Shown: positions 34,901 to 50,989, counted from the first letter of the stretch. The stretch: 64,000 nt of DNA from an uncultured Candidatus Micrarchaeota archaeon (GCA_963804385.1 CAWDQD010000007.1:100-64099); one strand, 5' to 3'. The notes: generated by a model from the letters alone, not told the origin. Program-made: numbers and translations.

Positions 34901-36375
34901 CACCAACGCTCTTCACGATCAGCGGTATCCCGGATGGATACCACCTCTGGTCAGTCCAGTGCGCGGACAATGCGGACAATGTGGGTACTAGCGTGGCGAG
35001 CAACGTCGCGGTCGATACAAGTATACCCGTAATCCAGCTCAATAGCCCAGTGGGCGGAGCCACAGTGACGACTTCCACGGTCCCGTTCAATTTCACCGTA
35101 GTGAGCAATTTCTCAGCCACGATGAACTGCTCGCTGTACCTGGATGGCAACCTCACTGCGACCAATATCTCGGCAGCCAACGATACCGCAATATCATTCA
35201 GCGTATCAAGCGTAATGGATGGGAGCCACAATTGGTCAGTATCCTGCATGGACATATCATCGAATGTCGGAGTCAGCGCAACTCAGAGTTTCATAGTGAA
35301 TACGTTCACCAGCGAACCGACCAACCCTCCGACGTTGCCTCAGCTCTCTGCCAGCCTCTCCAGCAACTGCACGGGCAATGTCGTCACCGTGTCTAACGGA
35401 GGCTCGCAGATAAGCGGCGTCACCGTCATAGTGGATGACGCCTCTAGCTTGGGTACATTGTACTCAGGAACCTCTGACGACAGCGGCCATCTGAACTTCT
35501 CGGGATGCGGCCTCAGCGTAAGGATAACGGTTGAGAAAGACGGCTACCAGACGGAGCAGTTCAACGAGCAGACCGTAGCGTGCGGGCAATGCGTACAATG
35601 CACGCAGGACAGCGACTGCCCTGATGCCGATAGCTGCGTCAACCAGAGCTGCGTGGCTGTCCAATGCAGCTGCGGCCAGATAGCCAATCATACGTGCAGC
35701 GCGTACGGATGCTGCTCTGACAGCCAATGCCCATCCGGCCAATACTGCCAGGGTCACACCTGCCAATACCCGAGCACTACGACGTCTAAGCCGGTATATC
35801 AATGCACATCGGATGGAGATTGCGCCAGCGACCAATCATGCAACATCCCGGCCGGGGCCAAAGGAGGCAACTGCCAGCAGATCACCGGATGCGGCGCGGT
35901 GGCCAACCATGTCCTGAGCCCGTACCAATGCGGTTCGGGTCCTTATTGCCCGTCCTGCGGCGATGGCCAGATCTGCCTGGATAACGTGTGCAAGAGCTTC
36001 GATCTAAGGGGACCAAGTTCAGGATTCATAGGAGATGCCCCTAGTGTGCAGGCGCTGGAGGATAATCTTACCTGCAGTGGATGCGACCTGAGGATAACGG
36101 ATCCGACCGGGAAAGTCCTCACAGGGAAGACGGACGCGTCCGGCAACTTCTCATTGCCGTTGAAGGTGACCGGTACATATACCGTCGCGTATATGAAAAA
36201 CGGCACCGTGGTGAAGACAGTGGAGATCAATGCGCTGCCAAAATCCGCTCCGCTATTGCCTTCGCTCCCTACAACGGTAATATCCAATCAGAACTGGTTC
36301 CCATGGATGCTCCTGCTGCTCATAATAATCGCGGTGGCACTCTACTGGTTGAGGATAAAGAAACCTAGAAAATGA
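31939..36375 (+). CDS. giant surface protein, C-terminal part: beta-helix module 3, six Ig-like repeats, Cys-rich region, C-terminal TM anchor
   Basis: 1478-aa ORF. Its first Met lies inside the conserved MNPGSIYGIL element, so it is not a true start. Six 95-aa repeats. CxxC-rich segment CGQCVQCTQDSDCPDADSC.... Terminal WFPWMLLLLIIIAVALYWLRIKKPRK. Confidence 0.8.
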   Translation: MSLHSMNPGSIYGILEPSSTISGCEQISTPGSYVLTSTLTGTDGAIPYYSGYFTTCILINSTSNVDINCQGNTINVSGFEFYYLEFDTAMAIENSTNVTIRNCKFDVSTSDGLALNVDTNTMFRNNTAFGYNPNYNTTAFYGGSYDGEDSVNTSFINDSASGVYRFVGISGYNSTYANNTALNTVSSAFYYGAGVLDNSTVSGNTVTNCSEFSIVGSGDNITDNLIKNDHYIGLDIAGIDYGGNLVSGNNVSGTTGTDAYEGGSGFVLDGLTNAPATLVNNIAYNNSGPGYLIFQDTDLNVLNNDLAYNNTIGFSVRGQYNLASMVNPGYTFGVGAPTLQLCDNESNCFDMPVSNNLSNDVAVNNTYAGFYTVLGLSTTYLNDTATGNGYGFLISNSNDTVLSGIHFYNNSNDFMFNNTASQSNYTMVNSIFDNPKGSMQNYTNLSISDTVAITDAYTINWSSNSSSLPAGKVSFVQKFVNISTVSGAPSIDSIVWSWLSSELTGYNVSRFQLWKYDSSGWSLLNNTPGATALSLANMNPASIYGVLQDNDTTPPVVNLISPVSGAITNLTAMNFTFNTTDDSSPTMNCSMYLDGAVNQTNSSVQNATTTMFQVSGISDGVHTWNVTCMDQSNNRGSSATRNFTVNTVAPSVTLNSPANLSIFNVSSVNFNFTTVDNLSSTMNCSIFLDGALNQTNASTSNNTATILTISGIPDGFHYWSVQCKDNANNVGTSVKRNFTVDTTAPVVTLNSPANLSIFNVSSVNFNFTTVDNLSSTMNCSIFLDGALNQTNAATANNTPTLFTISAIPDGFHYWSVQCISNASNVGTSVKRNFTVDTVPPTVTLNSPANLSIFNVSSVNFNFTTVDNLSSTMNCSIFLDGALNQTNAATANNTPTLFTISAIPDGFHYWSVQCISNASNVGTSVKRNFTVDTVPPTVTLNSPANLSIFNVSSVNFNFTTVDNLSSTMNCSIYLDGALNQTNAATANNTPTLFTISGIPDGYHLWSVQCADNADNVGTSVASNVAVDTSIPVIQLNSPVGGATVTTSTVPFNFTVVSNFSATMNCSLYLDGNLTATNISAANDTAISFSVSSVMDGSHNWSVSCMDISSNVGVSATQSFIVNTFTSEPTNPPTLPQLSASLSSNCTGNVVTVSNGGSQISGVTVIVDDASSLGTLYSGTSDDSGHLNFSGCGLSVRITVEKDGYQTEQFNEQTVACGQCVQCTQDSDCPDADSCVNQSCVAVQCSCGQIANHTCSAYGCCSDSQCPSGQYCQGHTCQYPSTTTSKPVYQCTSDGDCASDQSCNIPAGAKGGNCQQITGCGAVANHVLSPYQCGSGPYCPSCGDGQICLDNVCKSFDLRGPSSGFIGDAPSVQALEDNLTCSGCDLRITDPTGKVLTGKTDASGNFSLPLKVTGTYTVAYMKNGTVVKTVEINALPKSAPLLPSLPTTVISNQNWFPWMLLLLIIIAVALYWLRIKKPRK
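33595..35304 (+). repeat. six tandem 285-bp (95-aa) repeats; the central copies are almost identical at the DNA level
   Basis: Repeat starts are 33595, 33880, 34165, 34450, 34735 and 35020. Copies starting at 34165 and 34450 are identical by eye except for about the first 20 nt and one later base. Confidence 0.9.
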
Positions 36376-36503
36376 TTTTTTTACTCCATCCCAGTGTCCG
36401 GCCAATGAAGCGGGCATGCCATGCCAACTCCATCATATAATGTGTCAGCTTGTGTCTTTTTAAAGTGTCTATCCCATAGGATATACGGCTGGGACCGCAT
36501 TTT

Positions 36504-37628
36504 ATGACAATACAGAGATCTTTCAGAGCGGTGGGAGAGGACACCACGATCGTGGGCAAGACCCAACCCTGGTCATATAGCGACAGCAAGTTCAGGAGAT
36601 CGATTACACTCGAATTCCATCCTTCTTCCAAGTGCGGATTCTCATGCCTGCACTGCCAGGGGTTGCCATACCGGAAAAGCTGGGGGGATACGCCTCCGAA
36701 GATGCCCGTGGCCCTTGTGGATCGGGTTTTCTCTGCCTATGACAGCAGGCCGGATAAGAGCGTCGGGATGTGGAGGGTGATCATCTCCGGCATGACTGGG
36801 GAGCCGACACTGAATCCGACAGTGACACGCTCCGTGATCCGGAAAGCGAAAGAGCGCGGGATAGCCGCCGGATTGTCCACCAACGGCATCCTGCTCGGAG
36901 CGGAAGACGTCGATCTCATGACGTCCGATAATACTCCTGACGACTGGCTGAACCTCAGCGCCGACTCCCCTCTCGGGGCCGACCCCCGCCTGGATGATAT
37001 ATTCTGCCGGGCGCATGGATGCAATGGCGGAGCGCTCGGCCGGTTCATGGAAAACCTGGAGGGAGCTGCCGAAATAAAATCCAGGAAAGGGTCTTCGATG
37101 CAGATCAATGTCGATTGGATAATGTCCGACCTTTCATTCGATTCCGGCCACATCCGCGATGACGTCGTAGGGACCATCGAGTACCTGAATTCGCTCCGAG
37201 GCGTCTCACTGCTGCGCCTCCAATTCCCGTTCTATCTTCATCCGCAGGTCCCGCGATTGAATGATGCGAACAGCTCGGAATTGGCCGAAGCATTGAAAGA
37301 CATGATTGAAGGCAAAATCATTTTCCCTGGGCTGCGACCTGATTTCGTAGTCAAGCTGAGGAATAACTGGTACAAGCGGCTACCGGGGATCAGCGAGTGC
37401 TCGGCTGCAAGCGACTACGGGGTTGTGATAGGTCCGGATTCCCGCGTCTACCACTGCCCGTATCTGGCTGCCCCGGCATTCGAAGAGGCCAACGCTCCGC
37501 TTGCCGGCGTGACTCCGGAAAATCTCTGGGGCATGCTCGATAAACTGGGCCCGATCAAGGCGCTCAGCAGGTGCAACGCGGTCTGCATACTGAAGGATTG
37601 CTTCGTTGGAACCGGAATCATCAGGTGA
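36504..37628 (+). CDS. radical SAM enzyme A
   Basis: CX3CX2C cluster CGFSCLHC, then GMTGEPTLNP. C-terminal Cys set: C..HC...RCNAVCILKDC. Confidence 0.8.
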   Translation: MTIQRSFRAVGEDTTIVGKTQPWSYSDSKFRRSITLEFHPSSKCGFSCLHCQGLPYRKSWGDTPPKMPVALVDRVFSAYDSRPDKSVGMWRVIISGMTGEPTLNPTVTRSVIRKAKERGIAAGLSTNGILLGAEDVDLMTSDNTPDDWLNLSADSPLGADPRLDDIFCRAHGCNGGALGRFMENLEGAAEIKSRKGSSMQINVDWIMSDLSFDSGHIRDDVVGTIEYLNSLRGVSLLRLQFPFYLHPQVPRLNDANSSELAEALKDMIEGKIIFPGLRPDFVVKLRNNWYKRLPGISECSAASDYGVVIGPDSRVYHCPYLAAPAFEEANAPLAGVTPENLWGMLDKLGPIKALSRCNAVCILKDCFVGTGIIR

Positions 37629-37632
37629 TGAA

Positions 37633-38988
37633 ATGCTTGCGCAGAAGAACATACTGTTGAACTCTAGGAAAGAGATATTCCGAATCGCCGAGCCTGACCG
37701 GCTGGTGAAGGCCGATCGGCTTTCAACGGAAGAGAAGAAAATCCAGGGATTGACTTCGTTGCAATACTATTTCAGACCGTTCTGCGGCATCATCGCCGCG
37801 GTGGATGACAGCATCCGCTCGCGATGGGACGCCCACCCGAACGACTTCTATCCCCTATCCCCGCTGGATTACGCTTCGGCGGTGGAGAAGTTCCTGAGGG
37901 GGGAGCGGGTGATGCCATTGCAGATATTCACGACCCTCACCAACCGCTGTAATTTCTCCTGCGCGCTCTGCTTCAGCAGGAAGGATCATGAGGGCAAAGA
38001 ATCGCACGATCTCTCCGCAAGCACCTATATCCAGACGCTTGAGTACCTCCTGAGTTTCGGCGGCCCTCTCGCGCAGAACATCTCCTCGGGCGCATCCGGG
38101 GAGGCCATACTCCACAAGGATTTCGACCGTATCATGGAATTCTCAGGAGATAAGGGGATCCTCACTTTCCTGACCACCAACGGAAGCAGGTCCGATCCGG
38201 ATTTCATCGACTGCGTGGCCAGGAACTCGTCCATCCTTACCTTCAGCATCCACGGGATCCACGAAGACGCGTTCAGGAAACTGGAGCGCCCCCCGGCAAG
38301 CATCACGCTCGAGAGGATATTGCGCACAATCGAATCCGTGGTGAGAAAACGGGAAGAGCTCGGGCGCTCGAAAGACATGATAGTCGGAGTCACGTCCCTC
38401 GTCCATCCGGATAATCGCGGGCATTTCATAGAGTTTGCATCGAGGCTTGCCGAGATCGGGGTGGATTACGTGCATTTCAACCCGATCCTTCCGAACCTTA
38501 AATCCCACAACATAATATTTTCTGAAGATGCGTGCCGCAGGGTCGAAGCGGAGCTCCTCCTGCTGCAAGGAATCTTCTCCGGATCCCAGACATACGTGCG
38601 GTCGCCCCTGAAATTCGATCAGAAACTCGATGATCAGACGTATTATTTCGACCCTACCGGCAGGAAAGTCCCCGAGACCTGCCTGATCGCCCTGCTACAG
38701 CCGAGCATCCATCCGATGTACGGAACTGATACCGCGAAGATGACCGCATGCCGATTCTATCCTGACGTGACCGAGAACCCGGACTTCTGGTACTCTTCGG
38801 AACTAGGGCCCCTCAGCTTCGAATCCGTCTGGACACAGGATAATCTCGCCCGCATCCAGCGGCAGACCATGAAATGCAGCGCCTGCTCTTCCCAGAGGCA
38901 GCTGGCGGAACTGGACTGGATGCTCCACACCAAAAAGTCGCATCCTAACGCGGAATTCTACCTGGACTTCTCATCCGAAATGCCTTAG
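37633..38988 (+). CDS. radical SAM enzyme B
   Basis: Start MLAQKN is 5 nt after the stop of enzyme A, preceded by AGGTGA. CX3CX2C cluster CNFSCALC. C-terminal cysteines (ETC, ACRF, KCSAC). The 3' end overlaps the convergent gene by 18 nt. Confidence 0.8.
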   Translation: MLAQKNILLNSRKEIFRIAEPDRLVKADRLSTEEKKIQGLTSLQYYFRPFCGIIAAVDDSIRSRWDAHPNDFYPLSPLDYASAVEKFLRGERVMPLQIFTTLTNRCNFSCALCFSRKDHEGKESHDLSASTYIQTLEYLLSFGGPLAQNISSGASGEAILHKDFDRIMEFSGDKGILTFLTTNGSRSDPDFIDCVARNSSILTFSIHGIHEDAFRKLERPPASITLERILRTIESVVRKREELGRSKDMIVGVTSLVHPDNRGHFIEFASRLAEIGVDYVHFNPILPNLKSHNIIFSEDACRRVEAELLLLQGIFSGSQTYVRSPLKFDQKLDDQTYYFDPTGRKVPETCLIALLQPSIHPMYGTDTAKMTACRFYPDVTENPDFWYSSELGPLSFESVWTQDNLARIQRQTMKCSACSSQRQLAELDWMLHTKKSHPNAEFYLDFSSEMP

Positions 38989-41655
38989 CTGGTCCATGAA
39001 CACCGAAGTCCTGAACTGCCCTGCCGCGGGAAGGCCGGATACTCCATTCGATTTGAACCCGCCGGTCGGGCCGATAACCAGATCCGCTTCGCCCAGGCGG
39101 TCCCTTATGTATCTGGCGTATGTGGCGTCGTAGACCATCATCTGCTCTTTCGAAGGGAGCAAAGAGTCGAGGCCTTTCCTCCTGAAAAGTATCTGCCTGA
39201 AACATAGCGAAGGCGCCCAGACCTCCCGCGGGAAATCGAACGCGATCGTCAGGTCCCATCCCATCCCGTGATTGAACTCCGGGGCCAGGATCCATGTCCC
39301 TTCATACAATAATCTTTCCCCGGAACTCTCACGCAGGTCGTTCGCTATCGCAGGCATGTCATAGCTCGGTTCGACCTCGGTGATCCCGGACATCATCTGG
39401 CTCTCCCCGCCCTGCTGGACCTTCCGGTATCTATCCAGGTTGACCAGCTTGAGATCCATGCCGCGAAGCAGCTGGTTGCGCAGCATCGTTTTTCCGGTCG
39501 CGGGGTGCCCTCCCAAGCGTATCCGCAGCGGCCTTCCCAGCCCCTGCTCCATCCTCCCTATCACGCCTGACAGGTCTTCCGCGAGGGAATGGACGTCGAT
39601 GACCTGCCTCAATGGATCCATCTTCAGATCCTGCGGCCCGATCCCGGCTGCCGCGAACCTCTCCGGGTTCATGCCGGCGAGCTCTTCCACGTGGTCGTTG
39701 TACGCCTGTATGGCTTCCCCGTATGTCCCGTCGATGAATGCGTGCCGCATCCTCCGTTGCAGGGCGGATGGCGTCTTCGCGAACGGGCGGACGTTCCTAG
39801 ATTCCGCGCACATGTGCTCGTCTATGAGCCATTCCGCCTTCTCCGCGAGCTCATCATCACCGGCGGCATGGGCGGTGGCCCAGAACAGGGCGAGGGATTT
39901 CACGTGAGTGGAGAATGTCTTGAACGGGTACCTGTACCCGAGGAATCTCAGGATGCTCTCCTGCTTGGCGAGCGCATCGTCCGCGAATCCCTCCAGTTCC
40001 CTGTTGGTGTAAACCATCTCGGACTGCTTGTACGGCGCCCGCATCCCCGGCCTGTCGAGCATCCCGTAGCCGATCCTTCCCGGATGCTTGCGCATCGCCC
40101 TCTCGGACGCGTACATGCGCGGCACCACGTTCACCGTGGCCCCCTTCCCGATGAAATCGAGCGCCCTGCTCACCGTATGCAGCACGTCCGCGGGGCGGTC
40201 GTTGAACCCCCCGAACAGTATCATGTTCATGCCCGGCGTGATGCCGGCGTCGATGACCGCCTGCAGCACGTTCTCGTTCTGCTCGACCGTTATCCCCTTG
40301 TCCATGCTGTCAAGCGCGCCCTGCACGAAACTCTCGTTGCCGAAGTATAACCGTTTGAACCCCGCGCGGGCGAGAAGCCCTATGAATTCCCCATCCGGCA
40401 CATCGGAATCGCGGCTGACGCAGAATTCGTTGACCCTCCCCTTGCAGGATTTCCTGATGCCCTGGAGCCCCTGCCTTATCACCTCGCGGCAGAATTCCTC
40501 CACCACGTCCCTGTGGGTCGTGAAATTGTTGTCGAATATCTGCACGGCGTCATGGGGTTCGTGGCCCTCGGATGTGCCTTCCTGCAACTCCTTCCTTATC
40601 CTATCAACCGCAGCCCGCGCGGCTTCGATCCTCTCTTCCTTCCCCATCCTCATGGTGTTCCTGGGGGTGTCGCAGAATACGCATTTGCCCCGGCAATGGT
40701 CCGTGATCGTTATGGCGATCGGTTTCGAGCCGATATGGTCTCCTTGGACCGTGGCTTTCTTCTTGCGCGCCCTGACATACGTGGTCCCGTGGTAGACGTC
40801 CTCCTTCCGTATGGGCACGTCCTCCGGATGGCTCTCCAACGACGTATTGGCGGGCCTCTTCAGGTCATCCGCGTGCGTGACCTTCCCGTCCTCATATATC
40901 CATATCCCTCCCAATGCGGAGAGCCGCTCCTTCTTGAAAACCGTCTCAGCGATGCGCGCCAGCGTTCTCTCGCCCGGACCTTTCACGACCACGTCAACCG
41001 GGAACGAGCGGAGGAACTCCTCGGGAGGGATGCTGAAGAATTCCGGGCCTCCGGCCACCCTCAACGCATCCGGATTGAGCCTGCCGACCCGCGTCATCAC
41101 CTCCACGTCGTTCTCGAGGACTATGGGGCACATCCCGATGATGCCGAATCTTTCGTTGGCAAGTATCCACTCCAGCCTATCGAGCCCGCCCAGGTTCGGG
41201 TTGTACACCCGCGAATCGACGAAATCCGTCTCCCTCAGCATGAAATGGCTGAGATTCTCGACGCCGTATTCCGGATCGATGACCCTGAGCTCGCCTTCGA
41301 ACGCCCCGTAGGACGCGATGATGAGCATTTTCAAGAAATCTTGCCTGGCGGATATGCCGTACCTGGAGAATGCGTCTTTATCGCCACCTATCGTCTCCCT
41401 GAACGCGCCTTCTATGTCCGATTGCGTATGCTGCCTGAGCGACAGGAGCACTTCGGTATCCCATATCTCCAGGAGGGCCTTCACGAAATCCCTAGGGACA
41501 GCGACAGGCATGGTGCCCCTGCGGAAGCCGTATGCAATGCCCCGGCTTTCGACTTCGTTCTCGAGTATCTGTCCGCGGAAAGGCGCCCTTCTGTAGAATA
41601 GCACGTTCGCCTTCTGCAAAGACAGGGCATCAGAAGCGCTTTTGATCAGCGTCAT
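38971..41655 (-). CDS. B12-binding-domain radical SAM enzyme fused to a uridine kinase/PRK-like P-loop domain
   Basis: Start MTLIKSAS, with an ATGA overlap at 41652-41655. Rossmann-like FGIIGMCPIVLEND...VDVVVKGPGERTLARI. CX3CX2C cluster CRGKCVFC. C-terminal Walker A GGHPATGKTML followed by LVNLDRY. Confidence 0.75.
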   Translation of the reverse strand: MTLIKSASDALSLQKANVLFYRRAPFRGQILENEVESRGIAYGFRRGTMPVAVPRDFVKALLEIWDTEVLLSLRQHTQSDIEGAFRETIGGDKDAFSRYGISARQDFLKMLIIASYGAFEGELRVIDPEYGVENLSHFMLRETDFVDSRVYNPNLGGLDRLEWILANERFGIIGMCPIVLENDVEVMTRVGRLNPDALRVAGGPEFFSIPPEEFLRSFPVDVVVKGPGERTLARIAETVFKKERLSALGGIWIYEDGKVTHADDLKRPANTSLESHPEDVPIRKEDVYHGTTYVRARKKKATVQGDHIGSKPIAITITDHCRGKCVFCDTPRNTMRMGKEERIEAARAAVDRIRKELQEGTSEGHEPHDAVQIFDNNFTTHRDVVEEFCREVIRQGLQGIRKSCKGRVNEFCVSRDSDVPDGEFIGLLARAGFKRLYFGNESFVQGALDSMDKGITVEQNENVLQAVIDAGITPGMNMILFGGFNDRPADVLHTVSRALDFIGKGATVNVVPRMYASERAMRKHPGRIGYGMLDRPGMRAPYKQSEMVYTNRELEGFADDALAKQESILRFLGYRYPFKTFSTHVKSLALFWATAHAAGDDELAEKAEWLIDEHMCAESRNVRPFAKTPSALQRRMRHAFIDGTYGEAIQAYNDHVEELAGMNPERFAAAGIGPQDLKMDPLRQVIDVHSLAEDLSGVIGRMEQGLGRPLRIRLGGHPATGKTMLRNQLLRGMDLKLVNLDRYRKVQQGGESQMMSGITEVEPSYDMPAIANDLRESSGERLLYEGTWILAPEFNHGMGWDLTIAFDFPREVWAPSLCFRQILFRRKGLDSLLPSKEQMMVYDATYARYIRDRLGEADLVIGPTGGFKSNGVSGLPAAGQFRTSVFMDQLRHFG

Positions 41656-42956
41656 AGTCCATCCTCGCTGAAGATGAACGCGGAGGTTATGCCGTACCCC
41701 TCCCTGCCACGATAGAGGAGGTCCGTGCATCCGATCCTATCGATGAGAGCGACCTTGCCGTTTTCGAGCTGCCCTAGCCGCTGGTCCCCGCCGTTCGACA
41801 TCAGCAGCCCGTCCCTGATGTTCAATCCGAATGCCCGCGAGATCCTGAGCATGAGCTCCGCGACCTGCTCCACCATCAGCCCCTTCCTTGAGAAATCGGT
41901 GTATACCTTCAGCATGGACAATGTTTTCCCGTCATAGTCCATCCCGATCATGGAATGTCCGAAGCATGATCGCTTGAGTGCTATCCACAATCTTCCCTGG
42001 TGGAGGTCATACTCGTCCCGGGAATATCCTGCATCGCCCAGCTTCTCGACGACTACGTCCTCCTGTTCACTCACGTGGAACGTCACGTGGTCCCCGCGTA
42101 TCACGCTCCTGATCAGCGGATCCAGCCTGTTCGTCTTTGCGACGAGGTTCTTGCAATCCTGCTCGGATGCCAATCTCGAAAGCTCGCTCATCTGGGCAGT
42201 ATCCACCAGCCCATGCAGCATCTGGATGTTCGCCTCGAAGATCCTCCTGTTGATGGAGGCCAGGTAAGGCAGCTTAACGATATGGCTGAAATCGCCCGCG
42301 AATTCAGACGCGAGCGGCCGCTTGGTGTCCCTGTCGCAGCATAGGAGTCCGACCGGGTCTCCGCCCTTTATCAGCTGCTGGCCGTACACCGCGTGCGCCA
42401 CCCATTCCGGTATGCGGTCGAGCTCCAGGGCTCCAATCTCCGGGGAACCGCAGTCCGGGATTATTAGCGCGGTCTGGGGGCCGAGGAACCTCTCGCGGTA
42501 ATGCTGGTGCAGTTCCCCGTCGGTGTATATCCAATGCCCGAGATTCCAGAACAGGTTCCCGTTGGCATCGGTCACCATCGCTATCTTCTCGTCAGGGAAA
42601 CTCTCCTTGTGCCTAGCGACGTAGTCCTGGGGCGTGGAGCGCCGGAATAACGATGAGATCTGCCCGAAATACTCATCCATCCTCCCTCCAAGGTTCCCAT
42701 CTATGCAGCCCCTCACTGTGCCGTCGCCCCATGCATAACCGCTGGCGCGGGAATTGACCGCGGGGGTGATTTTCGTCCTCTCGGTGTCGACCATGGCGAA
42801 ATGGAAACCTACCATGGAATCCTTCATGATCTCGCCTTCGAAGAGGCTGATGCCGCTCCAGTCGCTCTTGCTCCTCATGCTCACGGTGCCGAACGGCATG
42901 TCGAATGCGGCCGGCGGCTTGTATCTCAAGCTCGGGGTCATCACGCCCGGCATCAT
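41652..42956 (-). CDS. hypothetical protein; the C-terminal third resembles phosphodiester glycosidase (NAGPA/DUF2233)
   Basis: Start MMPGVM, with an ATGA overlap at 42953-42956. HSMIGMDYDGKTLSMLKVYTD...GLMVEQVAELMLR..GLNIRDGLLMSNGGDQ resembles the family pattern R-x-x-G..dG..l.lv.vdG...G.tl.ela.lm...G...A.nLDGGGS, from memory. Confidence 0.45.
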   Translation of the reverse strand: MMPGVMTPSLRYKPPAAFDMPFGTVSMRSKSDWSGISLFEGEIMKDSMVGFHFAMVDTERTKITPAVNSRASGYAWGDGTVRGCIDGNLGGRMDEYFGQISSLFRRSTPQDYVARHKESFPDEKIAMVTDANGNLFWNLGHWIYTDGELHQHYRERFLGPQTALIIPDCGSPEIGALELDRIPEWVAHAVYGQQLIKGGDPVGLLCCDRDTKRPLASEFAGDFSHIVKLPYLASINRRIFEANIQMLHGLVDTAQMSELSRLASEQDCKNLVAKTNRLDPLIRSVIRGDHVTFHVSEQEDVVVEKLGDAGYSRDEYDLHQGRLWIALKRSCFGHSMIGMDYDGKTLSMLKVYTDFSRKGLMVEQVAELMLRISRAFGLNIRDGLLMSNGGDQRLGQLENGKVALIDRIGCTDLLYRGREGYGITSAFIFSEDGL

Positions 42957-44236
42957 ATGAACGACGTCCCTCCGGGATCCCCAGCGTTCCTTATGACGTC
43001 CAGGAATGCCTGGAACTCTTCGATCTCGCGCTCGGCCAGCCTCCCTTCGGAACTCAGCACTCCAAGGAGCGTGTTCGTCCGGTGGATCTTGCATGTGGGA
43101 GGGCAGACGCCGATCCTGCCTATGGCCGCTTTCCTCTCTACGGATTCCCATACCCTCTCCAATGGCTGCGAACGCAGGTCCCCGAGCAGGAAATCAGGAT
43201 TGCCGTCGCGTTCCGAGCACAGGTAGACGCGCCCGTCGTATGCGATGCTCGCCGCCCACGGGTGGCCGAGGCATGATTTGCAGTCCTTCCCGCCTATGGG
43301 CTGGCCGGCCGCGGCATCAACGAAATAATCATCCGCGATTATCGGGACGATCGGGTATCCGGATAATATCGCCTTCACTTCCTGGAAGTTCTCAATCGCC
43401 CTTCGAGCGACGTCCTGGGTTATCTGCTTCCTCAGGTCGCATCCGCTCTGCCCGTAATTAAGGACCGGGCGGTATCCGATGTAGCTGACCAGGGCCTTCG
43501 GATCCTTATCCAGCAGCTCCTTCGCGAACAGTGCGACGCTTCGCATGAATTCCACGTTGATACCGTTCACGATCATCCCGAGGCCGAAGCTCGTCTCGGT
43601 CCCGGAGAGCGCTGTCGCCATGAGCCTGATGTTCTCCTTAGCTTTGTGGTAAACCGCAGGATTCTTTATCCTGTGGAATCTCAGGTAATTCTCCTGGTCC
43701 GCGCTGTTGAAGCTCACCCTCACGAAACTTATGTTCGATTCGGCCAGGTCGGCGGCTTTCGCTTCATCGAACAGCGTGCCGTTCGTGAAAAAGCCGGTCT
43801 CGAATCTCTTCTTGCCCGCATACTTCAGGCCGTCTATGGTGCGCGGGTTGGTCATCGGTTCCCCGCCCCCTGTGAATATCACGCCGTTGACTCCTGCGTC
43901 TCCTATCTTGTCGAGCAGGTCCGTCATCACCTCGTACGGCATTATCCGTTTCCCGGCATCGGAGATCGTGCGCTCTTTCCAGAGCCGGTAGGTGCAATCG
44001 CCGCAGCTGAGGTTGCACTCCAGGGACGGCACGAGCTCCACCGTGATCGGTGTGACCTTCTCCGGCTCTCCGCGCAATACGTGCCCGATCCGTTCGCGGT
44101 GCCACAGCGCCTTGATATGGTGCTGCATGCCGATCGGGAATTCCGGCTTGAGCAATGAGATGACCCCGCGCTCCAAGCGGGCCAGCCGCTGATCAGCGCT
44201 GATTCTCGACTCTAATACTGGAATGAGCGTCTTCAT
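42953..44236 (-). CDS. radical SAM enzyme C with SPASM/twitch-like C-terminus
   Basis: CX3CX2C cluster CNLSCGDC, then FTGGGEPMTNP. C-terminal CKSCLGH...YLCSERDGNPDFLLGDLRSQPLERVWES...VCPPTCKIH. Own TATA (minus-strand aatataag, plus 44292-44299) and GGAGGGG upstream. Confidence 0.85.
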   Translation of the reverse strand: MKTLIPVLESRISADQRLARLERGVISLLKPEFPIGMQHHIKALWHRERIGHVLRGEPEKVTPITVELVPSLECNLSCGDCTYRLWKERTISDAGKRIMPYEVMTDLLDKIGDAGVNGVIFTGGGEPMTNPRTIDGLKYAGKKRFETGFFTNGTLFDEAKAADLAESNISFVRVSFNSADQENYLRFHRIKNPAVYHKAKENIRLMATALSGTETSFGLGMIVNGINVEFMRSVALFAKELLDKDPKALVSYIGYRPVLNYGQSGCDLRKQITQDVARRAIENFQEVKAILSGYPIVPIIADDYFVDAAAGQPIGGKDCKSCLGHPWAASIAYDGRVYLCSERDGNPDFLLGDLRSQPLERVWESVERKAAIGRIGVCPPTCKIHRTNTLLGVLSSEGRLAEREIEEFQAFLDVIRNAGDPGGTSFI

Positions 44237-44318
44237 CTGTCCCCGACCCCTCCTGTCCTGTTGGAATTATAGTAGAAAGTAGTAAAAAGTGCTTATATTC
44301 TTTCCTATCCGCCCTGGT

Positions 44319-44831
44319 CTATCCCAAAACGCTGGAAAACGGCTTCTTGAAGCCCGCCGGCGCTTTCTCCCACGCGGTTTCCAGCGCAAGATAGCCCGCG
44401 ACCCCGATGGCCATCCCGCCGAAGACGTCGAAGAATGTATGCACTCCCAGATAGACCCTGGTGAACGCGACGAACACGGCGAATGCGGTGTATATCCATC
44501 CGTTCGGTTTCTTCCATAATCCTGCCGCGAGGGCGAACGCGACGACCGCATTGCTGCTCGGGAACGAATAGCCGTCCGGGCATTGCACCTTGGATGGGAT
44601 CAACAAGCAGGGCCGTTGCTCCTGGACCAGGTATTTCACTCCGGTCCCCAGAAGATAGACGATCACGAGCGCCAGTATGAGGCGATTCCGCTTCTTGCCC
44701 TGTTCGGCGATGAACGCGATGATCAGGACGATCGCCAGGAACAGGAAGTCGTTGTCGATGAGCTGGGCTATGGGGGTAAGCAGGGGGATGCTCAGCTGGC
44801 TGGCCCACATGGTTATGATATCGAGCATCAT
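44319..44831 (-). CDS. PAP2-family phosphatase (candidate dolichyl/polyprenyl-diphosphate phosphatase)
   Basis: Motifs KYLVQEQRP, SFPSSNA (PSGH position) and FTRVYLGVHTFFDV (SRxxxxxHxxxD position). ATGA overlap with the AglB stop at 44828-44831. Confidence 0.7.
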   Translation of the reverse strand: MMLDIITMWASQLSIPLLTPIAQLIDNDFLFLAIVLIIAFIAEQGKKRNRLILALVIVYLLGTGVKYLVQEQRPCLLIPSKVQCPDGYSFPSSNAVVAFALAAGLWKKPNGWIYTAFAVFVAFTRVYLGVHTFFDVFGGMAIGVAGYLALETAWEKAPAGFKKPFSSVLG

Positions 44832-47779
44832 TTCCCCGTGTAGTACTGGTCCTGCATCCTGAAGATCCTCACTTTCGGCGAATCATAGACCAAATCGAAA
44901 CCAGGGATCGAGCCTAGCATGAACCCCTGGTACAGCGTGGAGCTGTAGAACGGGGTGGTCCGGTAGGCGTAGCTGCTTATCGGGTTGCCCAATGCATCGG
45001 TCCAGAGCTGCTCGTTGTCGTATATGGCCACGAACTGGAGGATGTTGTTGCTGTTGCTCGTGAGGATCCATCTTGCCGGGTGCAGCTGGAGGCTGCCGTC
45101 CTGGGTCTTGTTGTCGAGGTCGTATGTAACCAGGGCCTGCTGCCCGTTTATGGTCCCGACCACTCCGCAGTAGGCCGGAGGAGTGCTGTTCGAGGCGTAA
45201 TCCTCCTTGTAGACCAGGAAGCCCGTCAGGTTGGCCGAAACCGCGCATGCGGTCCCTCCCTGGGCCGGGGCGATTATGGTCTCCCACATGTGGTCTAGCT
45301 CGCAGGTCGATGTGCCGGGATCATGGTTCACGTCCGTCTGGTTGGCGTAGGCGCACGCGAGGTAGTTGAGCGCGCTGTACTTGCCTCCGAAGGAGATGTC
45401 CTGGTTGCTGTTGCCGCTGCCGAGCACCTCGATGTCCATCAGGGCGTACTGCGAACCGTATGCATTCATGGTGTTCCTGAGGTTGGACGCGTCTCCGTCC
45501 AGATAGGCGTAGGCCGTCGCCCCTATCATGTCCGAGCTGGCATGCTCGTTGCGGAGCACGGTGTCATGCATGCCGAAGAAGTTGATCCAGTGGCCATAGT
45601 CCCACCAGGATATGATGCGGCCGTCCGCAGGCACGTTGTCCTTTATCCATTCCATGGAGCTCATCCAGTAGTCCGGTATGAACGAGCAGCGGTATTGGAT
45701 GCCGCCCATTAGCTCCGGCGCGATGCCGGCAGAAGCGTTCCCGTCCAGGCTGTAGATGCACAGATCCTGGCTGAAGAACTGCACCGGGTCCGTTGTTATA
45801 TTGGCGATGTTCTGGGAAGCCGCGCAGAGAAGCGGGTTGGTCTGGCAGTAGCCGGCGAACCTGGCCGCCGTGGCTTGCGGAGCCTGCGTGAACGTAGGCG
45901 TGAAAGAAGTGAGCAGGATGCTGCCGCCCATCGATGGCGCCGGCGCTATCGGGAAACCCAGCTCCATCATCAGGACCAATACGACAAGCACCCACATGAT
46001 CGCGTTCAGGTCCGGTATCCTGCCTTTCAGCAGGTCGGCCGCCTCGCCGAAGACCGCCACCGTGGAGAATATCAGCGTCATGCCTAGGTATGTTATCAGC
46101 TTCTCCTTCTCGAGGCCCATGAACGTTATGGGGAGGATGAAGGATAGCAGCAGCAGAGCGTATATCGGCCACTTGCCTGTTTTGGCCGCCTTGAAGAACG
46201 ACACGAGCAGCAGCAGGATGCCCCAGAAGAAAAAGAGCGTCATCAGGGTGTCCGAGCGCTCTATTATCGGGAAATTGGCGGGTGCGCCGTTGGAGAATGT
46301 CAGCAGCGCGTTGAGCACCGAGGCTGTCCCGTTGAACAGCAGGTTGAACAGTATCGTGGGTATGGCGTTGATGAGGCCGACGGCGGATGTCACGATCCCC
46401 AGGGATCCCGTGCCTGTGAGCTGCATGGCGACGAATCCCAGCGTGTCGTCATAGACCGCCAGGCCCGGGGCCTGCTCGGCTATAGTCCTCTCGAGCGGCT
46501 GGGTATATGCGCCCCAATCCTCGTACGCGGTCATGAACTGCGCGAAGAACGACGTGTGCATGAAGATGAAACCCAGCACCACCAAGGAGCCGATCACGGC
46601 CCCGATGCGCTCGGTCTTGCCGATTTTCGGCGCGTAGCGGTCGAATACGAAATCCACCGCGAGCGGGAACGCCAGCGCGAGAGCGGGCAACCCGACATTC
46701 TCGAGGATGCCTTCGATCCCTGCCTTCAGATCCACCTGCGTCGAATACACGGTCAGGATGATCTGGACCAGGAGCATGCCGGCAAGGATCATCGCGAGCT
46801 GCTTGTTCCCCTTCTCATCCTTCTGCTGGATGTGGCGCAATCCCATGCAGAAGAAGAACACCGCGAGGCAGAAAGTGATGAGTATGTCCACGTTCGAGCC
46901 GAGCACCACGGCCCCGTAGGCGACGATGGCTAGCAGGGTGAACCTCATGGATTCGCGTTTGAGGGCTATGTAGAACATCGCGAGGAAGAAGAACAGCGCG
47001 AAGATGCTGTAGGGGACGATCTGCGCGTCGCCGCCCTGGAACTTGAGGAGGAAGAACGGCATGAAGGCCGTGAGGCCTGCCGCGAGTATGCCTGCGCGCT
47101 CGTCGTACATCTCCCTGAAGAACAAGTAGATGAAGAACACCGCGAGCCCTGCGGCGAGGGGCGGATAGACCGAGCCCACGCCGGTCAGGGTATAAGGCGA
47201 ATATGGCGCCTGCCCGTTGTACAGCGAGAACCATGGGGCGATCAGGTATTTGTAGAGCGGCTGGCCGAGGTGGTTCGACACGGTGAGCGGATACCACCCG
47301 GTCATGTCGTCGGCGAAGTTATGGCCGACCGTCACTATCTGGTGCACGCCTTCCAGGTAGAAGTACGGGTCCAGCTCGTAGAGCAGCCCCCCGGAAGAGG
47401 AGAGCGCGAGCCATACGGAGAGCGCGAGTATGAACAGCATCCCGATGGCCGGTGCGTTCGATTTGAGCGTGGCTATGTTCAGGCTCTTCATGCGCTCCTG
47501 GACGTCAGGGAACACCTTGTCCTTGTAGAGGAGCGCGACTCCTGCTATGAAGACGATGCCCCAGTTGATGAATATCCACGGAGTGGAATACAATATGCCT
47601 ACGAGGGATTCGAGGGTGAAGAGCAGCGGTACGGCGACCCAGCCCAGCGTATAGCCTATGAGCGTCTTGTCGATCGCGGATAGCTTCTCCTGGCGCAGGA
47701 ACCAGAACGCTAACGGTATGCCTGATGCGCCGAACGCCAAAGCGATCACGATTACCAATGGGATATCTGTGAAAAGCAT
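44828..47779 (-). CDS. aglB: archaeal oligosaccharyltransferase AglB (STT3 family)
   Basis: 983 aa. Multi-TM N-terminal half, WWDYGHWI catalytic motif and a large C-terminal soluble domain. Confidence 0.9.
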   Translation of the reverse strand: MLFTDIPLVIVIALAFGASGIPLAFWFLRQEKLSAIDKTLIGYTLGWVAVPLLFTLESLVGILYSTPWIFINWGIVFIAGVALLYKDKVFPDVQERMKSLNIATLKSNAPAIGMLFILALSVWLALSSSGGLLYELDPYFYLEGVHQIVTVGHNFADDMTGWYPLTVSNHLGQPLYKYLIAPWFSLYNGQAPYSPYTLTGVGSVYPPLAAGLAVFFIYLFFREMYDERAGILAAGLTAFMPFFLLKFQGGDAQIVPYSIFALFFFLAMFYIALKRESMRFTLLAIVAYGAVVLGSNVDILITFCLAVFFFCMGLRHIQQKDEKGNKQLAMILAGMLLVQIILTVYSTQVDLKAGIEGILENVGLPALALAFPLAVDFVFDRYAPKIGKTERIGAVIGSLVVLGFIFMHTSFFAQFMTAYEDWGAYTQPLERTIAEQAPGLAVYDDTLGFVAMQLTGTGSLGIVTSAVGLINAIPTILFNLLFNGTASVLNALLTFSNGAPANFPIIERSDTLMTLFFFWGILLLLVSFFKAAKTGKWPIYALLLLSFILPITFMGLEKEKLITYLGMTLIFSTVAVFGEAADLLKGRIPDLNAIMWVLVVLVLMMELGFPIAPAPSMGGSILLTSFTPTFTQAPQATAARFAGYCQTNPLLCAASQNIANITTDPVQFFSQDLCIYSLDGNASAGIAPELMGGIQYRCSFIPDYWMSSMEWIKDNVPADGRIISWWDYGHWINFFGMHDTVLRNEHASSDMIGATAYAYLDGDASNLRNTMNAYGSQYALMDIEVLGSGNSNQDISFGGKYSALNYLACAYANQTDVNHDPGTSTCELDHMWETIIAPAQGGTACAVSANLTGFLVYKEDYASNSTPPAYCGVVGTINGQQALVTYDLDNKTQDGSLQLHPARWILTSNSNNILQFVAIYDNEQLWTDALGNPISSYAYRTTPFYSSTLYQGFMLGSIPGFDLVYDSPKVRIFRMQDQYYTGK

Positions 47780-49452: not shown

Positions 49453-50913
49453 TCACTTGGTGTCTATCTGCGCCCTCTGCAGCTTCCCGGAATAATCCAC
49501 GTAGACGCTCTTCACGTGCGAGAACTCGTCGATGCCCAGGATGCCCGCTTCCCTCGTGTGGCCTGTGCCCTTGACTCCGCCGAACGGGAGGTGGACCTCC
49601 GCTCCGATGGTGCTGGAATTCACGTAGGTTATCCCGCTCTCGATGCCCTCTATGGCCCGGAACGCGTTGTTGACATCCTTAGTATATATAGAGGAGCTGA
49701 GCCCGTACTCCACGGAGTTCGCGATGTCTATCGCCTCGTCCAGCTCGTCGAATTGGAGGATGGAAAGAACCGGGCCGAATATCTCCTCCCTCGCTATCCT
49801 CATCTCTTTCTGGACGGAATCGAACACGGTCGGCTGGAAGAAGAACCCATTGCCCGGGCTGCGCTTCCCGCCGCAGAGCAGTTTAGCTCCCTCGTCCTGG
49901 CCGATCCGGACATATCTCTCGGTCTTCTCCAGCGCTGCCTTGTTGATGAGAGGGCCGACATCCGTGGTCTTCAGCAATCCGCTGCCCAAACGGAGCTTCT
50001 TCGCACGCGCGACGATCTCGCCGACCAGCTTCTCCTTTATGCAGCTGTCCGCTATCACCCTGCTCGTCGAAGTGCATCTCTGCCCCGTAGTGCCGAACGC
50101 GCCCCAGATTATGCCGTCCACCGCTAGTTCGAGGTCCGCGTCGTCCATGACTATGATCGCGTTCTTCCCTCCCAGTTCGAGGCCGACCTTCTTCAATCCG
50201 GCGTTCTTCGTTATCCATTCCCCGGTGGCTTTCGAGCCTGTGAACGAGATGCCGTCTATCTCCGGATGCTTCACCATCGCTTCGCCGACCGTGGATGCCG
50301 GCCCGGTCACGAGATTGAGCACGCCCGGTGGCAATCCGGCCTTCTCGAAGAGCTTCACCATCTCGTACGCGCACAGCGGCGTGTCCGAGCTGGGCTTGAG
50401 GACCACTGTGTTGCCGCACACCAATGCTGCGCCGAGCTTCCAGGCCGGTATGGCGAAAGGGAAATTCCATGGCGTGATCAGGCCCATCACTCCGACCGGC
50501 CGTCTCACTGTCATGCAGAACTTGCTTCTCAGCTCGCTCGTGGTGGTGTTGCCTAAGAGGCGCCTGCCTTCGCCTGAGAAATATTCGAGCATGTCTATGG
50601 CTTCCTGCACGTCTCCGAGCGCTTCGGGAAGCACTTTCCCCATCTCGCTCGATACCAATCTGCCGAGCCTCTCCTTGTCGGCTTTCAGCATCATGGACAC
50701 TTTCAGGATAATATGCGCCCGCGTAGGCGGGGGCGTCTTTGACCATGCATCGAGGGCCTCGTGCGCGGCGAACACCGCTTCGTCCACGTCGTTCTCATCT
50801 CCCATCGGGAACCTGGCTATGACCTTTCCCGTCGCAGGGTCGTGGTCATCGAAATTTTTGTTCTTGCCAATCCATTTCCCGTTGATGCACATCTTCTGCT
50901 TTCCAATGAACAT
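49453..50913 (-). CDS. NAD(P)-dependent aldehyde dehydrogenase
   Basis: ELGGKNAIIV and FGTTGQRCTSTSR are the active-site Glu and Cys motifs. Start MFIGKQKMCINGKW is preferred over the ORF-track start 51078, which would overlap the divergent dut gene. Alternative start 50946. Confidence 0.85.
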   Translation of the reverse strand: MFIGKQKMCINGKWIGKNKNFDDHDPATGKVIARFPMGDENDVDEAVFAAHEALDAWSKTPPPTRAHIILKVSMMLKADKERLGRLVSSEMGKVLPEALGDVQEAIDMLEYFSGEGRRLLGNTTTSELRSKFCMTVRRPVGVMGLITPWNFPFAIPAWKLGAALVCGNTVVLKPSSDTPLCAYEMVKLFEKAGLPPGVLNLVTGPASTVGEAMVKHPEIDGISFTGSKATGEWITKNAGLKKVGLELGGKNAIIVMDDADLELAVDGIIWGAFGTTGQRCTSTSRVIADSCIKEKLVGEIVARAKKLRLGSGLLKTTDVGPLINKAALEKTERYVRIGQDEGAKLLCGGKRSPGNGFFFQPTVFDSVQKEMRIAREEIFGPVLSILQFDELDEAIDIANSVEYGLSSSIYTKDVNNAFRAIEGIESGITYVNSSTIGAEVHLPFGGVKGTGHTREAGILGIDEFSHVKSVYVDYSGKLQRAQIDTK

Positions 50914-50960
50914 GACGATTCCCCCCGGTTTTCCGGACAATTCCATGAACCGTCCAAGGA

Positions 50961-50968
50961 TTATAAAT
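50961..50968. promoter_or_regulatory. shared TATA element TTATAAAT between divergent ALDH and dUTPase genes
   Basis: 22-29 nt upstream of the dut ATG (50990, leaderless-type). On the other strand it lies 48-55 nt upstream of the ALDH start at 50913, which is preceded by GGGGGG. Confidence 0.45.
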
Positions 50969-50989
50969 CTTTGGCGGCCTTTCCTATAC

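Follow-up and report, generated by a model that had tools for sequence, protein, structure and literature searches.

Why should four radical S-adenosylmethionine (radical-SAM) genes lie packed together in an archaeal genome, beside genes of N-glycosylation and a large surface protein, and do they belong to those neighbours or to one another? The question is raised by a locus of an uncultured Candidatus Micrarchaeota archaeon, contained in a 64,000-nt stretch of DNA (GCA_963804385.1 CAWDQD010000007.1:100-64099; hereafter, the window) that was analysed at its full length. The locus holds five genes, p1 and p2 on the plus strand and p5, X and p3 on the minus strand, of which X is the only one that does not encode a radical-SAM protein. 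An earlier interpretation drawn from the sequence alone (the sequence-only reading) had described them as part of an island joined to the AglB-PAP2 gene pair and to a giant surface protein. The results presented here identify as the unit of interest a portable cassette, not an AglB- or surface-protein-linked island.

Recurrence and rarity of the cassette

The contigs harboring relatives of X or p3 were looked up, and their proteins were compared with those of the window by blastp. Orthologs of p5, X, p3 and p2, with or without p1, were found together in approximately ten independent contigs, with host-contig GC contents spanning 33-59% (Table 1). Given this co-occurrence the clustering is not due to chance, and the linkage among the genes extends across distant lineages. 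Ranking by identity to the window proteins yields the same order for each gene (L017 > L022 > L002 > rest), as expected if the genes were inherited as a unit. The p5-X-p3 and p2-p1 genes hence appear to constitute one self-contained, laterally mobile cassette of four to five genes and approximately 7.7 kb. Its deepest core consists of p5, p3 and X, with p2 nearly always present and with p1 and a kinase as optional components, the latter, where present, being either fused to p3 or separately encoded. The convergent p3/p2 arrangement of the window is repeated in L020 and L024. One of the contigs, L002, carries LytR_cpsA_psr, a bacterial-type single-stranded DNA-binding protein and a MurQ-like SIS domain and is for this reason probably bacterial, so that the cassette is probably present in Bacteria as well. 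More distant cassettes (L014-L016) combine p5-like (L014 and L016) and p3-like radical-SAM genes with X, an FGE/EgtB-like gene and a GT4 glycosyltransferase, and in L014 and L015 X is fused to a PNP_UDP_1 nucleoside-phosphorylase domain.

Relatives of X are exceedingly scarce. They amount to 10 proteins among 5.8 billion clustered proteins, and the X profile recovers 13 members at E < 1e-30 among 1.84 billion representatives, plus a distant tail. A scan of 185,579 GTDB species representatives with two peptide patterns, which very divergent copies would escape, located X in only two of them, one Micrarchaeota and one Nanoarchaeota metagenome-assembled genome (MAG). Carriage by mobile elements was rejected, as tblastn with X as the query matched none of 72,556 plasmids and 50,697 phages. 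Literature searches retrieved no paper that links radical-SAM enzymes to NAGPA, DUF2233 or a phosphodiester glycosidase, nor any that treats this cassette in Micrarchaeota. The sequence-only reading had noted no described archaeal pathway with this combination, and no curated family, defence model or paper was found to cover it.

In the window, the organization of the cassette is as originally read. The ORF (open reading frame) list and the translations place the four CX3CX2C motifs in the genes and at the coordinates first proposed, and direct reading confirmed the 18-nt convergent 3' overlap between p2 and p3 (38971-38988) as well as the two spacers, of 82 nt between PAP2 and p5 and of 128 nt before p1. 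The 4-nt ATGA overlaps of X with both of its neighbors, p5 and p3, are given by the coordinates and recur when genes are called independently on a Logan contig of 4 kb, while the p3 start at 41655 is backed by ortholog alignments and by the gene call on L001. None of the five cassette proteins gave a transmembrane segment in a hydrophobic-segment scan. Upstream of the p5 ATG, the 82-nt spacer contains a TATA-like element (ctataatt) at approximately 35 nt and a purine-rich stretch (GGAGGGG) at approximately 12 nt, which make it plausible that the cassette has its own promoter and designate this spacer as a possible candidate for it. The 128-nt spacer harbors an A/T-rich block (catataa...tttttaaag) that is conserved with L017 at the DNA level and probably constitutes promoter or regulatory sequence.

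Table 1. Cassette genes, neighbors and spacers in the window, and organization of related loci in other contigs
Feature or locus	Coordinates	Strand	Size, motif or gene order	Assignment or remark
p1	36504-37628	+	374 aa, CGFSCLHC motif	radical-SAM, accessory cassette member
p2	37633-38988	+	451 aa, CNFSCALC motif	radical-SAM, core cassette member
p3	38971-41655	-	894 aa, CRGKCVFC motif	B12-binding-like domain, radical-SAM core, C-terminal P-loop kinase-like domain
X	41652-42956	-	434 aa	signature cassette gene, divergent NAGPA/DUF2233 superfamily member
p5	42953-44236	-	427 aa, CNLSCGDC motif	radical-SAM with SPASM/twitch-type domain; first gene of the minus-strand unit
PAP2-family phosphatase	44319-44831	-	170 aa	cassette neighbor, non-member
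AglB/STT3 oligosaccharyltransferase	44828-47779	-	983 aa, WWDYG in translation	cassette neighbor, non-member
Surface-protein ORF	31939-36375	+	1478 aa, sequon- and Cys-rich	cassette neighbor, adjacency not conserved
PAP2/p5 spacer	44237-44318	-	82 nt	read from sequence
Spacer upstream of p1	36376-36503	+	128 nt	read from sequence
L008 (GC 39%)			NAGPA-like, p5, X, p3, p1, p2	colinear, all five genes
L022 (GC 55%)			p2-p5-X-p3 (915 aa)	convergent with p1
L002 (GC 40%)			p2-p5-X-p3 (901 aa)	
L005, L009 (GC 33-34%)			p5-p2-X-p3	
L012 (GC 33%)			p2-X-p3	
L018, Nanoarchaeota MAG (GC 51%)			APH-p5-X-p3-p2	
L020, L024 (GC 57%, L020 only)			p5-X-p3	convergent with p2
L023 (GC 41%)	2789-8574		p3-p2, convergent with second p2 and p1	X and p5 not in view

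X is a divergent member of the NAGPA/DUF2233 superfamily

X has no direct match in Pfam or NCBIfam. Its AlphaFold2 model (predicted local distance difference test, pLDDT, of 85.5), built on an alignment of X relatives, retrieved in Foldseek searches the DUF2233 structure 3ohg as top match (E 1.1e-10, TM (target) 0.67) and the vertebrate NAGPA catalytic domains 6pki, 6pkg and 6pku (E 3e-9 to 1e-7), with the hypothetical proteins 5h3k and 6ozd, ranked right after NAGPA, as the remaining significant matches in the PDB. A transitive link was obtained at the sequence level, since the X profile reaches four proteins (P0042, P0043, P0046 and P0057) that all pass the Pfam NAGPA model (PF09992). A direct link was rejected: besides the negative Pfam and NCBIfam searches, hhalign assigned a 12% probability to the comparison of X with the NAGPA protein of L008, and the X profile returned only noise against the PDB. 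The description of X as phosphodiester-glycosidase-like in the sequence-only reading is therefore right at the superfamily level, through fold search and intermediate sequences.

The loop of X corresponding to the NAGPA signature reads S387-N-G-G-D391-x-R393, with the Ser, Gly, Asp and Arg residues invariant in 10/10 sequences. In the columns of this loop the intermediate relatives present D-N-G-G-D and NAGPA presents DGGGS, an equivalence derived from hidden Markov model alignment and not from structural superposition. A 2026 structural study describes the DGGGS motif of NAGPA as strictly invariant and essential, the D286A, G288A, G289A and S290A mutants being inactive, and the Gly-rich loop binds the sugar-1-phosphate (PMC13474241). 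Read against this alignment, the acidic residue of the X loop would effectively have moved from the first to the last position, and X is predicted to still recognize, probably, a sugar-1-phosphate group. X also lacks an N-terminal hydrophobic segment and a signal peptide and, on the basis of these absences and of the swapped loop, we treat it as a new cytoplasmic clade of the superfamily.

With NAGPA and the bacterial DUF2233 proteins (PF09992, 6pki, 3ohg), X thus shares the fold and a Gly-rich loop between two strands. It differs from them in lacking a direct Pfam match, in the replacement of DGGGS by S-x-G-G-D-x-R with swapped Asp and Ser positions, in an insertion of approximately 90 residues, in its cytoplasmic nature, with neither a signal peptide nor Cys of the disulfide type, in contrast to the secreted or luminal canonical members, and in its invariable location inside a radical-SAM operon.

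Auxiliary-cluster radical-SAM enzymes

Three of the four putative radical-SAM proteins score above the cut-off of the Pfam Radical_SAM model (PF04055), with 51.6 (p5), 51.5 (p3) and 42.8 bits (p2). The match of p1 is marginal (29.2 bits versus a cut-off of 29.5), but its CX3CX2C motif is invariant in 5/5 orthologs, and the radical-SAM motif is likewise invariant among the orthologs of p2, p3 and p5. Ortholog alignments revealed further conserved cysteines in three of the proteins. In p5, C322, C340 and C382 are kept together with the C74/C78/C81 triad in 9/9 orthologs, and C378 in 8/9; in p2, C350/C373/C415/C418 accompany C106/C110/C113 in 9/9 orthologs; and in p1, C299/C318/C357/C361/C366 accompany C44/C48/C51 in 5/5. 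The four, four and five conserved C-terminal cysteines of p5, p2 and p1 identify them as auxiliary-cluster (SPASM/twitch-type) enzymes, an assignment that for p5 coincides with a Pfam SPASM match (25.6 bits, cut-off 21.5) and that for p1 and p2, which have no such match, derives from the Cys pattern alone. In p3, the radical-SAM triad is the only conserved Cys set.

Orthologs of p5 are 37-56% identical in L002, L005, L008, L009, L018, L020 and L022, and those of p2 37-49% identical in L002, L005, L009, L018, L020, L022 and L023. The p1 orthologs of L008, L022 and L023 are 53-57% identical and that of L017 is 75% identical, and no p1 was found in the cassette loci of L002, L005, L009 and L018. 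The p2 ortholog of L017 (13985-15375, minus strand) comprises two overlapping ORFs that lie in different frames, owing either to a frameshift that would make it a pseudogene or to an error of long-read assembly.

None of these enzymes could be assigned to a characterized family. NCBIfam models, with curated cut-offs covering, among others, MoaA, QueE, anSME, PqqE, NifB, viperin, Tes, HpnJ and BchE, matched p1, p2 and p5 at 15-62 bits, far below cut-offs of 180-855 (best matches 46-62, with cut-offs of 180-650). The best phmmer matches to PDB chains were those of p5 to NifB (E 2e-5) and of p2 to the tetraether synthase Tes (7tol, E 0.0017). A housekeeping identity of the radical-SAM members, which the sequence-only reading had named as the outcome that would speak against it, was rejected after the NCBIfam, Pfam and phmmer/PDB searches produced nothing near threshold.

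The putative B12-type core and kinase-like tail of p3

The sequence-only reading had described one radical-SAM protein fused to a kinase-like domain. This protein is p3, for which that reading had omitted an N-terminal B12-binding-like domain. The Pfam B12-binding model (PF02310) scores 17.8 bits on p3 itself, below its cut-off of 32.1, and is on record for P0092, a p3 ortholog with 74% identity. Matches of p3 to class-B radical-SAM families in NCBIfam range overall from 17 to 38 bits, with cut-offs of 251-650; its best NCBIfam matches, at 35-38 bits, all belong to this class, the top one being HpnJ (37.9 versus 577.6). Among PDB chains, phmmer matched p3 to TsrM at E 0.016.

The kinase-like tail spans residues ~700-894 (roughly 38974-39560). 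Its Walker A motif, GHPATGKT, is invariant in four long orthologs together with further Asp, Glu and Arg residues, and E190-G-T and R225/R230/K232 are invariant in four sequences. A model of the tail with a pLDDT of 63.8, built from four sequences, matched UCK2, Thermus uridine kinase, PRK and PanK in Foldseek (E 2e-6 to 1e-4, TM (target) 0.55-0.62). At the sequence level, the tail matches the 'putative kinase' 2rhm (E 0.006) and, as the sole Pfam family, AAA_33 (E 0.11). The fusion to a uridine-kinase/PRK-like domain is supported, with the fold predicted by a low-confidence model and accompanied by conserved motifs. A homolog search with the isolated kinase domain gave zero matches, missing the known orthologs as well, and the p3 homolog search returned at least four proteins. 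The tail is present in the p3 proteins of the window, L017, L022 and L002, and other versions of p3, of approximately 600-640 aa, lack it. In L018, where p3 is short, the gene directly upstream of p5 encodes an APH-family kinase, a single case consistent with the kinase step being supplied by different folds; as a candidate MtnK-type enzyme, this APH kinase had no NCBIfam match.

Neighborhood of the cassette

The AglB protein adjoining the cassette matches Pfam STT3 (34.5 bits) and AglB_core-like (20.4 bits), and PAP2, which is translationally coupled to it by a 4-nt overlap, matches Pfam PAP2 (63.2 bits) and NCBIfam undecaprenyl-diphosphatase models below their cut-offs only. PAP2 keeps the KX6RP and RX5HX3D motifs of PAP2 phosphatases and has PSSN in place of their usual PSGH. 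A PAP2 coupled to AglB would suit the recycling of dolichyl diphosphate.

The closest relative of the locus is L017, a 141-kb contig of a 77%-identical Micrarchaeota MAG, with 74-94% identity to the window at the protein level. Synteny between both contigs comprises aldehyde dehydrogenase, AglB (84% identical), a divergent or truncated PAP2 remnant, p5, X, p3, the split p2 and p1. Beyond p1, L017 carries thymidylate synthase and Fic genes followed by an FtsX permease, and the window carries RuBisCO, a major facilitator superfamily (MFS) transporter and surface-protein ORFs. As a result of this difference, adjacency to the surface protein is not conserved even within the lineage, and the proposed joining of the island to a giant surface protein is not supported, the whole surface-protein/RuBisCO/MFS block being missing in L017. 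The same applies to its joining to AglB-PAP2, which is confined to the window and L017 and thus to one lineage. AglB, STT3 and PAP2 were not found in the visible flanks of L002, L008, L018, L022, L023 and L024. The neighbors visible there are unrelated genes: L002 has a methyltransferase and a phosphatase, L008 a second NAGPA-family gene directly upstream of p5, L018 the APH kinase together with a transglutaminase-like gene, L022 one gene of the aconitase family and one SLOG gene, and L023 Iso_dh, an aminotransferase and an AsnC regulator. The AglB-PAP2 adjacency thus appears to be a feature of the Micrarchaeota lineage, not a property of the cassette. A functional tie to N-glycosylation is possible in that lineage and is not supported as a general property.

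The 7.5-kb surface protein of the sequence-only reading is not a single ORF, since it is split between one frame at 28731-31028 and another at 31909-36372, the approximately 0.9 kb from 31028 to 31909 holding only short fragments. The distance of 128 nt to p1 accordingly holds for the stop of a 4.4-kb ORF (31939-36375) and not for an intact 7.5-kb protein. This ORF contains 89 sequons, 47 Cys, one C-terminal hydrophobic segment and Big_13 and CarboxypepD_reg domains. Within the wider surface region (28731-36372, plus strand), a beta-helix/NosD ORF (28746-31031) contains 51 sequons, and three short sequon-bearing fragments in two frames lie between it and the 1478-aa ORF. The broken region may represent a decayed gene, several genes or assembly indel errors. 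Secreted, sequon-rich proteins were also observed near the cassette in L012 (3452-5872, minus strand; a collagen-repeat protein of 806 aa with 46 sequons and 20 Cys) and in L018 (17664-21174, minus strand; proteins with 29 and 43 sequons). The variant cassette of L023 adjoins genes of leucine-pathway type (Iso_dh, aminotransferase, AsnC regulator).

Search for a precursor peptide

A scan for small ORFs and a comparison of the regions upstream of p1 revealed no conserved small ORF beside the cassette in any two lineages, and a precursor peptide was rejected on these grounds. The sequence-only reading had likewise seen no short precursor-peptide ORF. Intergenic gaps around the cassette are mostly below 150 nt. 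In the window, a 28-aa ORF (36421-36507, plus strand; MPTPSYNVSACVFLKCLSHRIYGWDRIL) overlaps the start of p1 through a terminal ATGA. At the DNA level this region is strongly conserved in L017, where an indel shifts its frame relative to p1, and no similar peptide is found upstream of p1 in L022 or L023. A conserved promoter or leader is a likelier identity for the region than a peptide gene. A 49-aa ORF was found only in L024-L026, the lineage of L020, in which p2, on the same strand, lies downstream of it and of two radical-SAM genes of the SPASM type. Beside the 49-aa ORF, the flank of the cassette in this lineage (L024 4622-12773, minus strand; also L020, L025 and L026) encodes on the strand of p2 an 838-aa metallo-beta-lactamase (MBL)-fold protein with a weak Apyc1-like match, a radical-SAM/SPASM protein of 719 aa whose N-terminus weakly resembles DUF4922 (HIT-like), and another SPASM enzyme, totaling six radical-SAM genes within 13 kb.

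Proposed function and alternative explanations

Whereas the cassette itself, with its composition, rarity, portability and fold assignments, is established by these data, its substrate class and each catalytic step are our inference. Several clues suggest that a small molecule of the cytoplasm undergoes chemistry of the phosphorylated-sugar or nucleoside type. X shows the fold of NAGPA, whose loop binds a sugar-1-phosphate, and L008 encodes a second NAGPA-family protein. A UCK/PRK-like p3 tail or, in L018, an APH kinase accompanies the cassette. Distant X homologs are fused to PNP_UDP_1 domains, a family whose members make sugar-1-phosphates from nucleosides, and a GT4 glycosyltransferase occurs in distant cassettes. 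Nucleotide-sugars would fit both the sugar and the nucleoside themes. We therefore propose, at a little less than an even chance, that the cassette encodes a cytoplasmic pathway tailoring a sugar-1-phosphate or nucleoside-type small molecule. The five soluble proteins would jointly turn some common metabolite of the cytoplasm, of sugar-1-phosphate, nucleoside or nucleotide-sugar type, into a modified product. X would bind or cleave a sugar-1-phosphate(diester) linkage and the kinase would (re)phosphorylate a hydroxyl, with p3 performing C-H chemistry such as methylation or rearrangement and p5, p2 and p1 performing C-H chemistry such as oxidation, C-C formation or epimerization.

Several observations weigh against this proposal. 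No member matches a characterized enzyme. X lacks the Asp of DGGGS, presenting S-x-G-G-D instead, and the D286A substitution kills NAGPA (PMC13474241), so X may bind without hydrolyzing or may perform other chemistry. L023 harbors p3, two copies of p2 and p1 but neither X nor p5 within its 9-kb contig, so that X is not an absolute requirement. Most cassettes lack the kinase, whose model is of low confidence. The kinase and PNP accessories could moreover merely dispose of 5'-deoxyadenosine, the radical-SAM by-product, in which case they would say nothing about the substrate. Neighbors suggestive of conflict systems (restriction-modification genes in L005, a TIR gene in L013) and, elsewhere, envelope-glycan genes also sit uneasily with it. 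A peptide substrate, finally, is possible in the L024-L026 lineage, because p2 lies there behind the 49-aa ORF and two SPASM-type genes.

Among the alternatives, we consider it unlikely that the cassette modifies a dolichol-phosphate-linked or nucleotide-activated sugar for AglB, as part of N-glycosylation or of another envelope-glycan pathway. The location of the cassette 82 nt downstream of AglB-PAP2 is conserved in L017, and the phosphodiester-glycosidase fold of X would suit dolichol-phosphate-linked and nucleoside-diphosphate sugars, both of which are sugar-1-phosphodiesters. Envelope-glycan genes also recur elsewhere (GT4 in L014 and L016, LytR_cpsA_psr in L002, the second NAGPA in L008), as do sequon-rich secreted proteins (window, L012, L018). 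Yet neither AglB, STT3 nor PAP2 lies beside the cassette in the six contigs listed above, the cassette has a candidate TATA-like element of its own, and its five soluble proteins offer no membrane segment for a lipid-linked substrate. The proximity of sequon-rich proteins could be due to chance and is weak evidence, since DPANN genomes are rich in large proteins of this type. Of the activated-sugar chemistry proposed by the sequence-only reading, only a weaker, AglB-independent form survives. More improbable still is a conflict or defence system that, like viperin, makes a modified nucleotide or nucleoside against viruses or competitors. The very rare, patchy and laterally transferred distribution would be in line with it, as would the DNA methylase, NgoFVII-type endonuclease and Vsr genes adjoining the L005 cassette, the TIR_2 gene preceding a distant PNP-X fusion in L013, and the pairing of kinase and radical-SAM enzyme, which resembles that of viperin with CMP kinase. 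The weak pVip matches of p1, p2 and p5, however, cover only the generic radical-SAM core (33-49 bits, NCBIfam cut-off 180), PADLOC-DB 2.0 models match neither X, p3 nor the accessory genes, homologs are absent from phage and plasmid collections, and most contexts feature housekeeping neighbors (aconitase-family, Iso_dh, PyrK). A known anti-phage defence system was rejected, the PADLOC search being negative save for generic pVip matches to the radical-SAM cores at 23-49 bits. The L013 locus (396-4115) encodes a 774-aa fusion of a distant X domain and PNP_UDP_1 in an operon of overlapping genes, preceded by a short TIR_2 protein with a weak ThsB-like match and by a 378-aa protein of no assigned family, with no radical-SAM gene in view, and this operon may be a conflict system using the X fold.

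The two remaining hypotheses of the sequence-only reading found little support. Remodeling of membrane lipids, for instance scavenged host lipids, with radical-SAM enzymes acting on alkyl chains and X or PAP2 on head groups, appears very improbable. It draws on weak matches of p2 to tetraether synthase (20 bits in NCBIfam; 7tol in the PDB) and of p3 to the ladderane, HpnJ and BchE class-B families, on the adjacency of PAP2 in the Micrarchaeota lineage and on the general lack of lipid synthesis in DPANN archaea. These scores (20-38 bits against cut-offs of 360-577) are nevertheless no better than those of dozens of unrelated radical-SAM families, the cassette proteins have no hydrophobic segments, no lipid-related gene is conserved beside the cassette, and the cassette is also found in the probably bacterial L002. 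Equally improbable is the cross-linking by SPASM/twitch enzymes of a peptide or protein, be it the Cys-rich surface protein, X itself or an unrecognized small peptide. Three enzymes with SPASM/twitch-like auxiliary Cys belong to a class rich in peptide maturases, a Cys-rich surface protein adjoins the cassette in the window, and in L024-L026 p2 follows, on the same strand, the 49-aa ORF, the MBL-fold protein and two MftC/PqqE-like radical-SAM genes. Set against this, no small ORF is conserved beside the cassette in any two lineages, and the 28-aa ORF is not in frame in L017 and has no counterpart in L022 or L023. L017 lacks the surface protein, which moreover is extracellular, whereas the enzymes are cytoplasmic, and kinase, PNP and NAGPA accessories do not suit peptide chemistry.

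Relation to known systems

The tailoring of a sugar-1-phosphate or nucleoside-type molecule finds parallels in several known routes, and these analogies concern their logic only, with no specific similarity to the cassette. The hopanoid (HpnH/HpnG/HpnJ) and futalosine (MqnE/MqnB/MqnC) pathways combine radical-SAM enzymes with a PNP_UDP_1-family nucleosidase acting on an adenosyl- or ribosyl-derived moiety, a similar logic of components, and the former also uses a B12-type radical-SAM enzyme. HpnJ is the top, if weak, NCBIfam match of p3, and distant X proteins are fused to PNP_UDP_1. Unlike in these pathways, no squalene-hopene or chorismate-pathway genes lie near the cassette and the window cassette lacks a PNP domain, while neither pathway has a NAGPA-like component. 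Viperin (pVip) systems with an adjacent or fused nucleotide kinase likewise pair a radical-SAM enzyme with a P-loop kinase and are sporadically distributed, but the cassette has its kinase fused to a B12-type enzyme and contains three to four radical-SAM proteins plus X instead of one enzyme. In antibiotic tailoring, B12-type, twitch or SPASM enzymes (OxsB/OxsA, BtrN, GenK, AprD4 and BlsE) act on sugars or nucleosides, often beside kinases or phosphohydrolases, a pairing comparable to the APH-family kinase of L018. No specific similarity to them was found (25-35 bits for BlsE, DesII and others), and the cassette lacks a glycosyltransferase, an aminotransferase or a scaffold-forming enzyme, so that it must start from a common metabolite. 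Tes and the glycerol dialkyl glycerol tetraether ring synthases are also archaeal radical-SAM enzymes, to which p2 has a weak Tes match (20 versus 450 bits); in contrast to them, the cassette proteins have no hydrophobic surfaces or segments and the cassette is also found in a probably bacterial contig.

Other features of the window

Several features of the window lie outside the cassette. A RuBisCO large-subunit gene (25709-27142, plus strand), presumably of form III, is located approximately 9 kb from the cassette. A dCTP-deaminase-like ORF (49643-51475, plus strand) has a long spurious N-terminal extension antisense to a strong aldehyde-dehydrogenase gene (49453-51078, minus strand), and a LAGLIDADG-domain ORF lies at 53994-55046 (minus strand). 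The signal recognition particle RNA (4974-5230, minus strand) has Bacteria_large_SRP as its best Rfam model (72.6 bits), over the archaeal model, and a lower-scoring clan member is hidden by clan competition. Two tandem ORFs (57381-58463 and 58511-59536, both on the minus strand) pass the Pfam gathering scores of Sigma70_r2 and Sigma70_r4; for DPANN archaea, sigma-70-like genes have been reported that have no accompanying anti-sigma factors (PMC8204110). Together with the bacterial-type match of the signal recognition particle RNA, these ORFs raised a doubt about archaeal origin, which was set aside in view of that report and of the Micrarchaeota label of the syntenic 141-kb contig. The window is consistent with a DPANN archaeon.

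Implications

In its widest form, our interpretation is that of a previously undescribed radical-SAM pathway in which a cytoplasmic NAGPA clade with a swapped Ser/Asp loop, a B12-type enzyme and two to three auxiliary-cluster enzymes would derive a new metabolite from an ordinary nucleotide, nucleoside or sugar-1-phosphate, for instance an unusual sugar, a cofactor or a nucleoside analogue. Lateral transfer would have brought the pathway to DPANN archaea and to a few further uncultured lineages, for use in host interaction, defence or envelope decoration. We regard this wider interpretation as doubtful, though within reach of the evidence. Multi-enzyme radical-SAM cassettes are already known, the unusual element here being the partner fold, of the NAGPA type, and there is no evidence for a new principle. 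Such cassettes have, however, repeatedly given new chemistry, in the form of cofactors, antiviral nucleotides, antibiotics and lipids, and in this one the radical-SAM enzymes are paired with a fold previously encountered only in the extracytoplasmic uncovering enzyme of mannose-6-phosphate. The cassette is compact enough for heterologous expression and, in the reduced genomes of DPANN archaea, a retained block of 7.7 kb likely matters for their symbiotic lifestyle.

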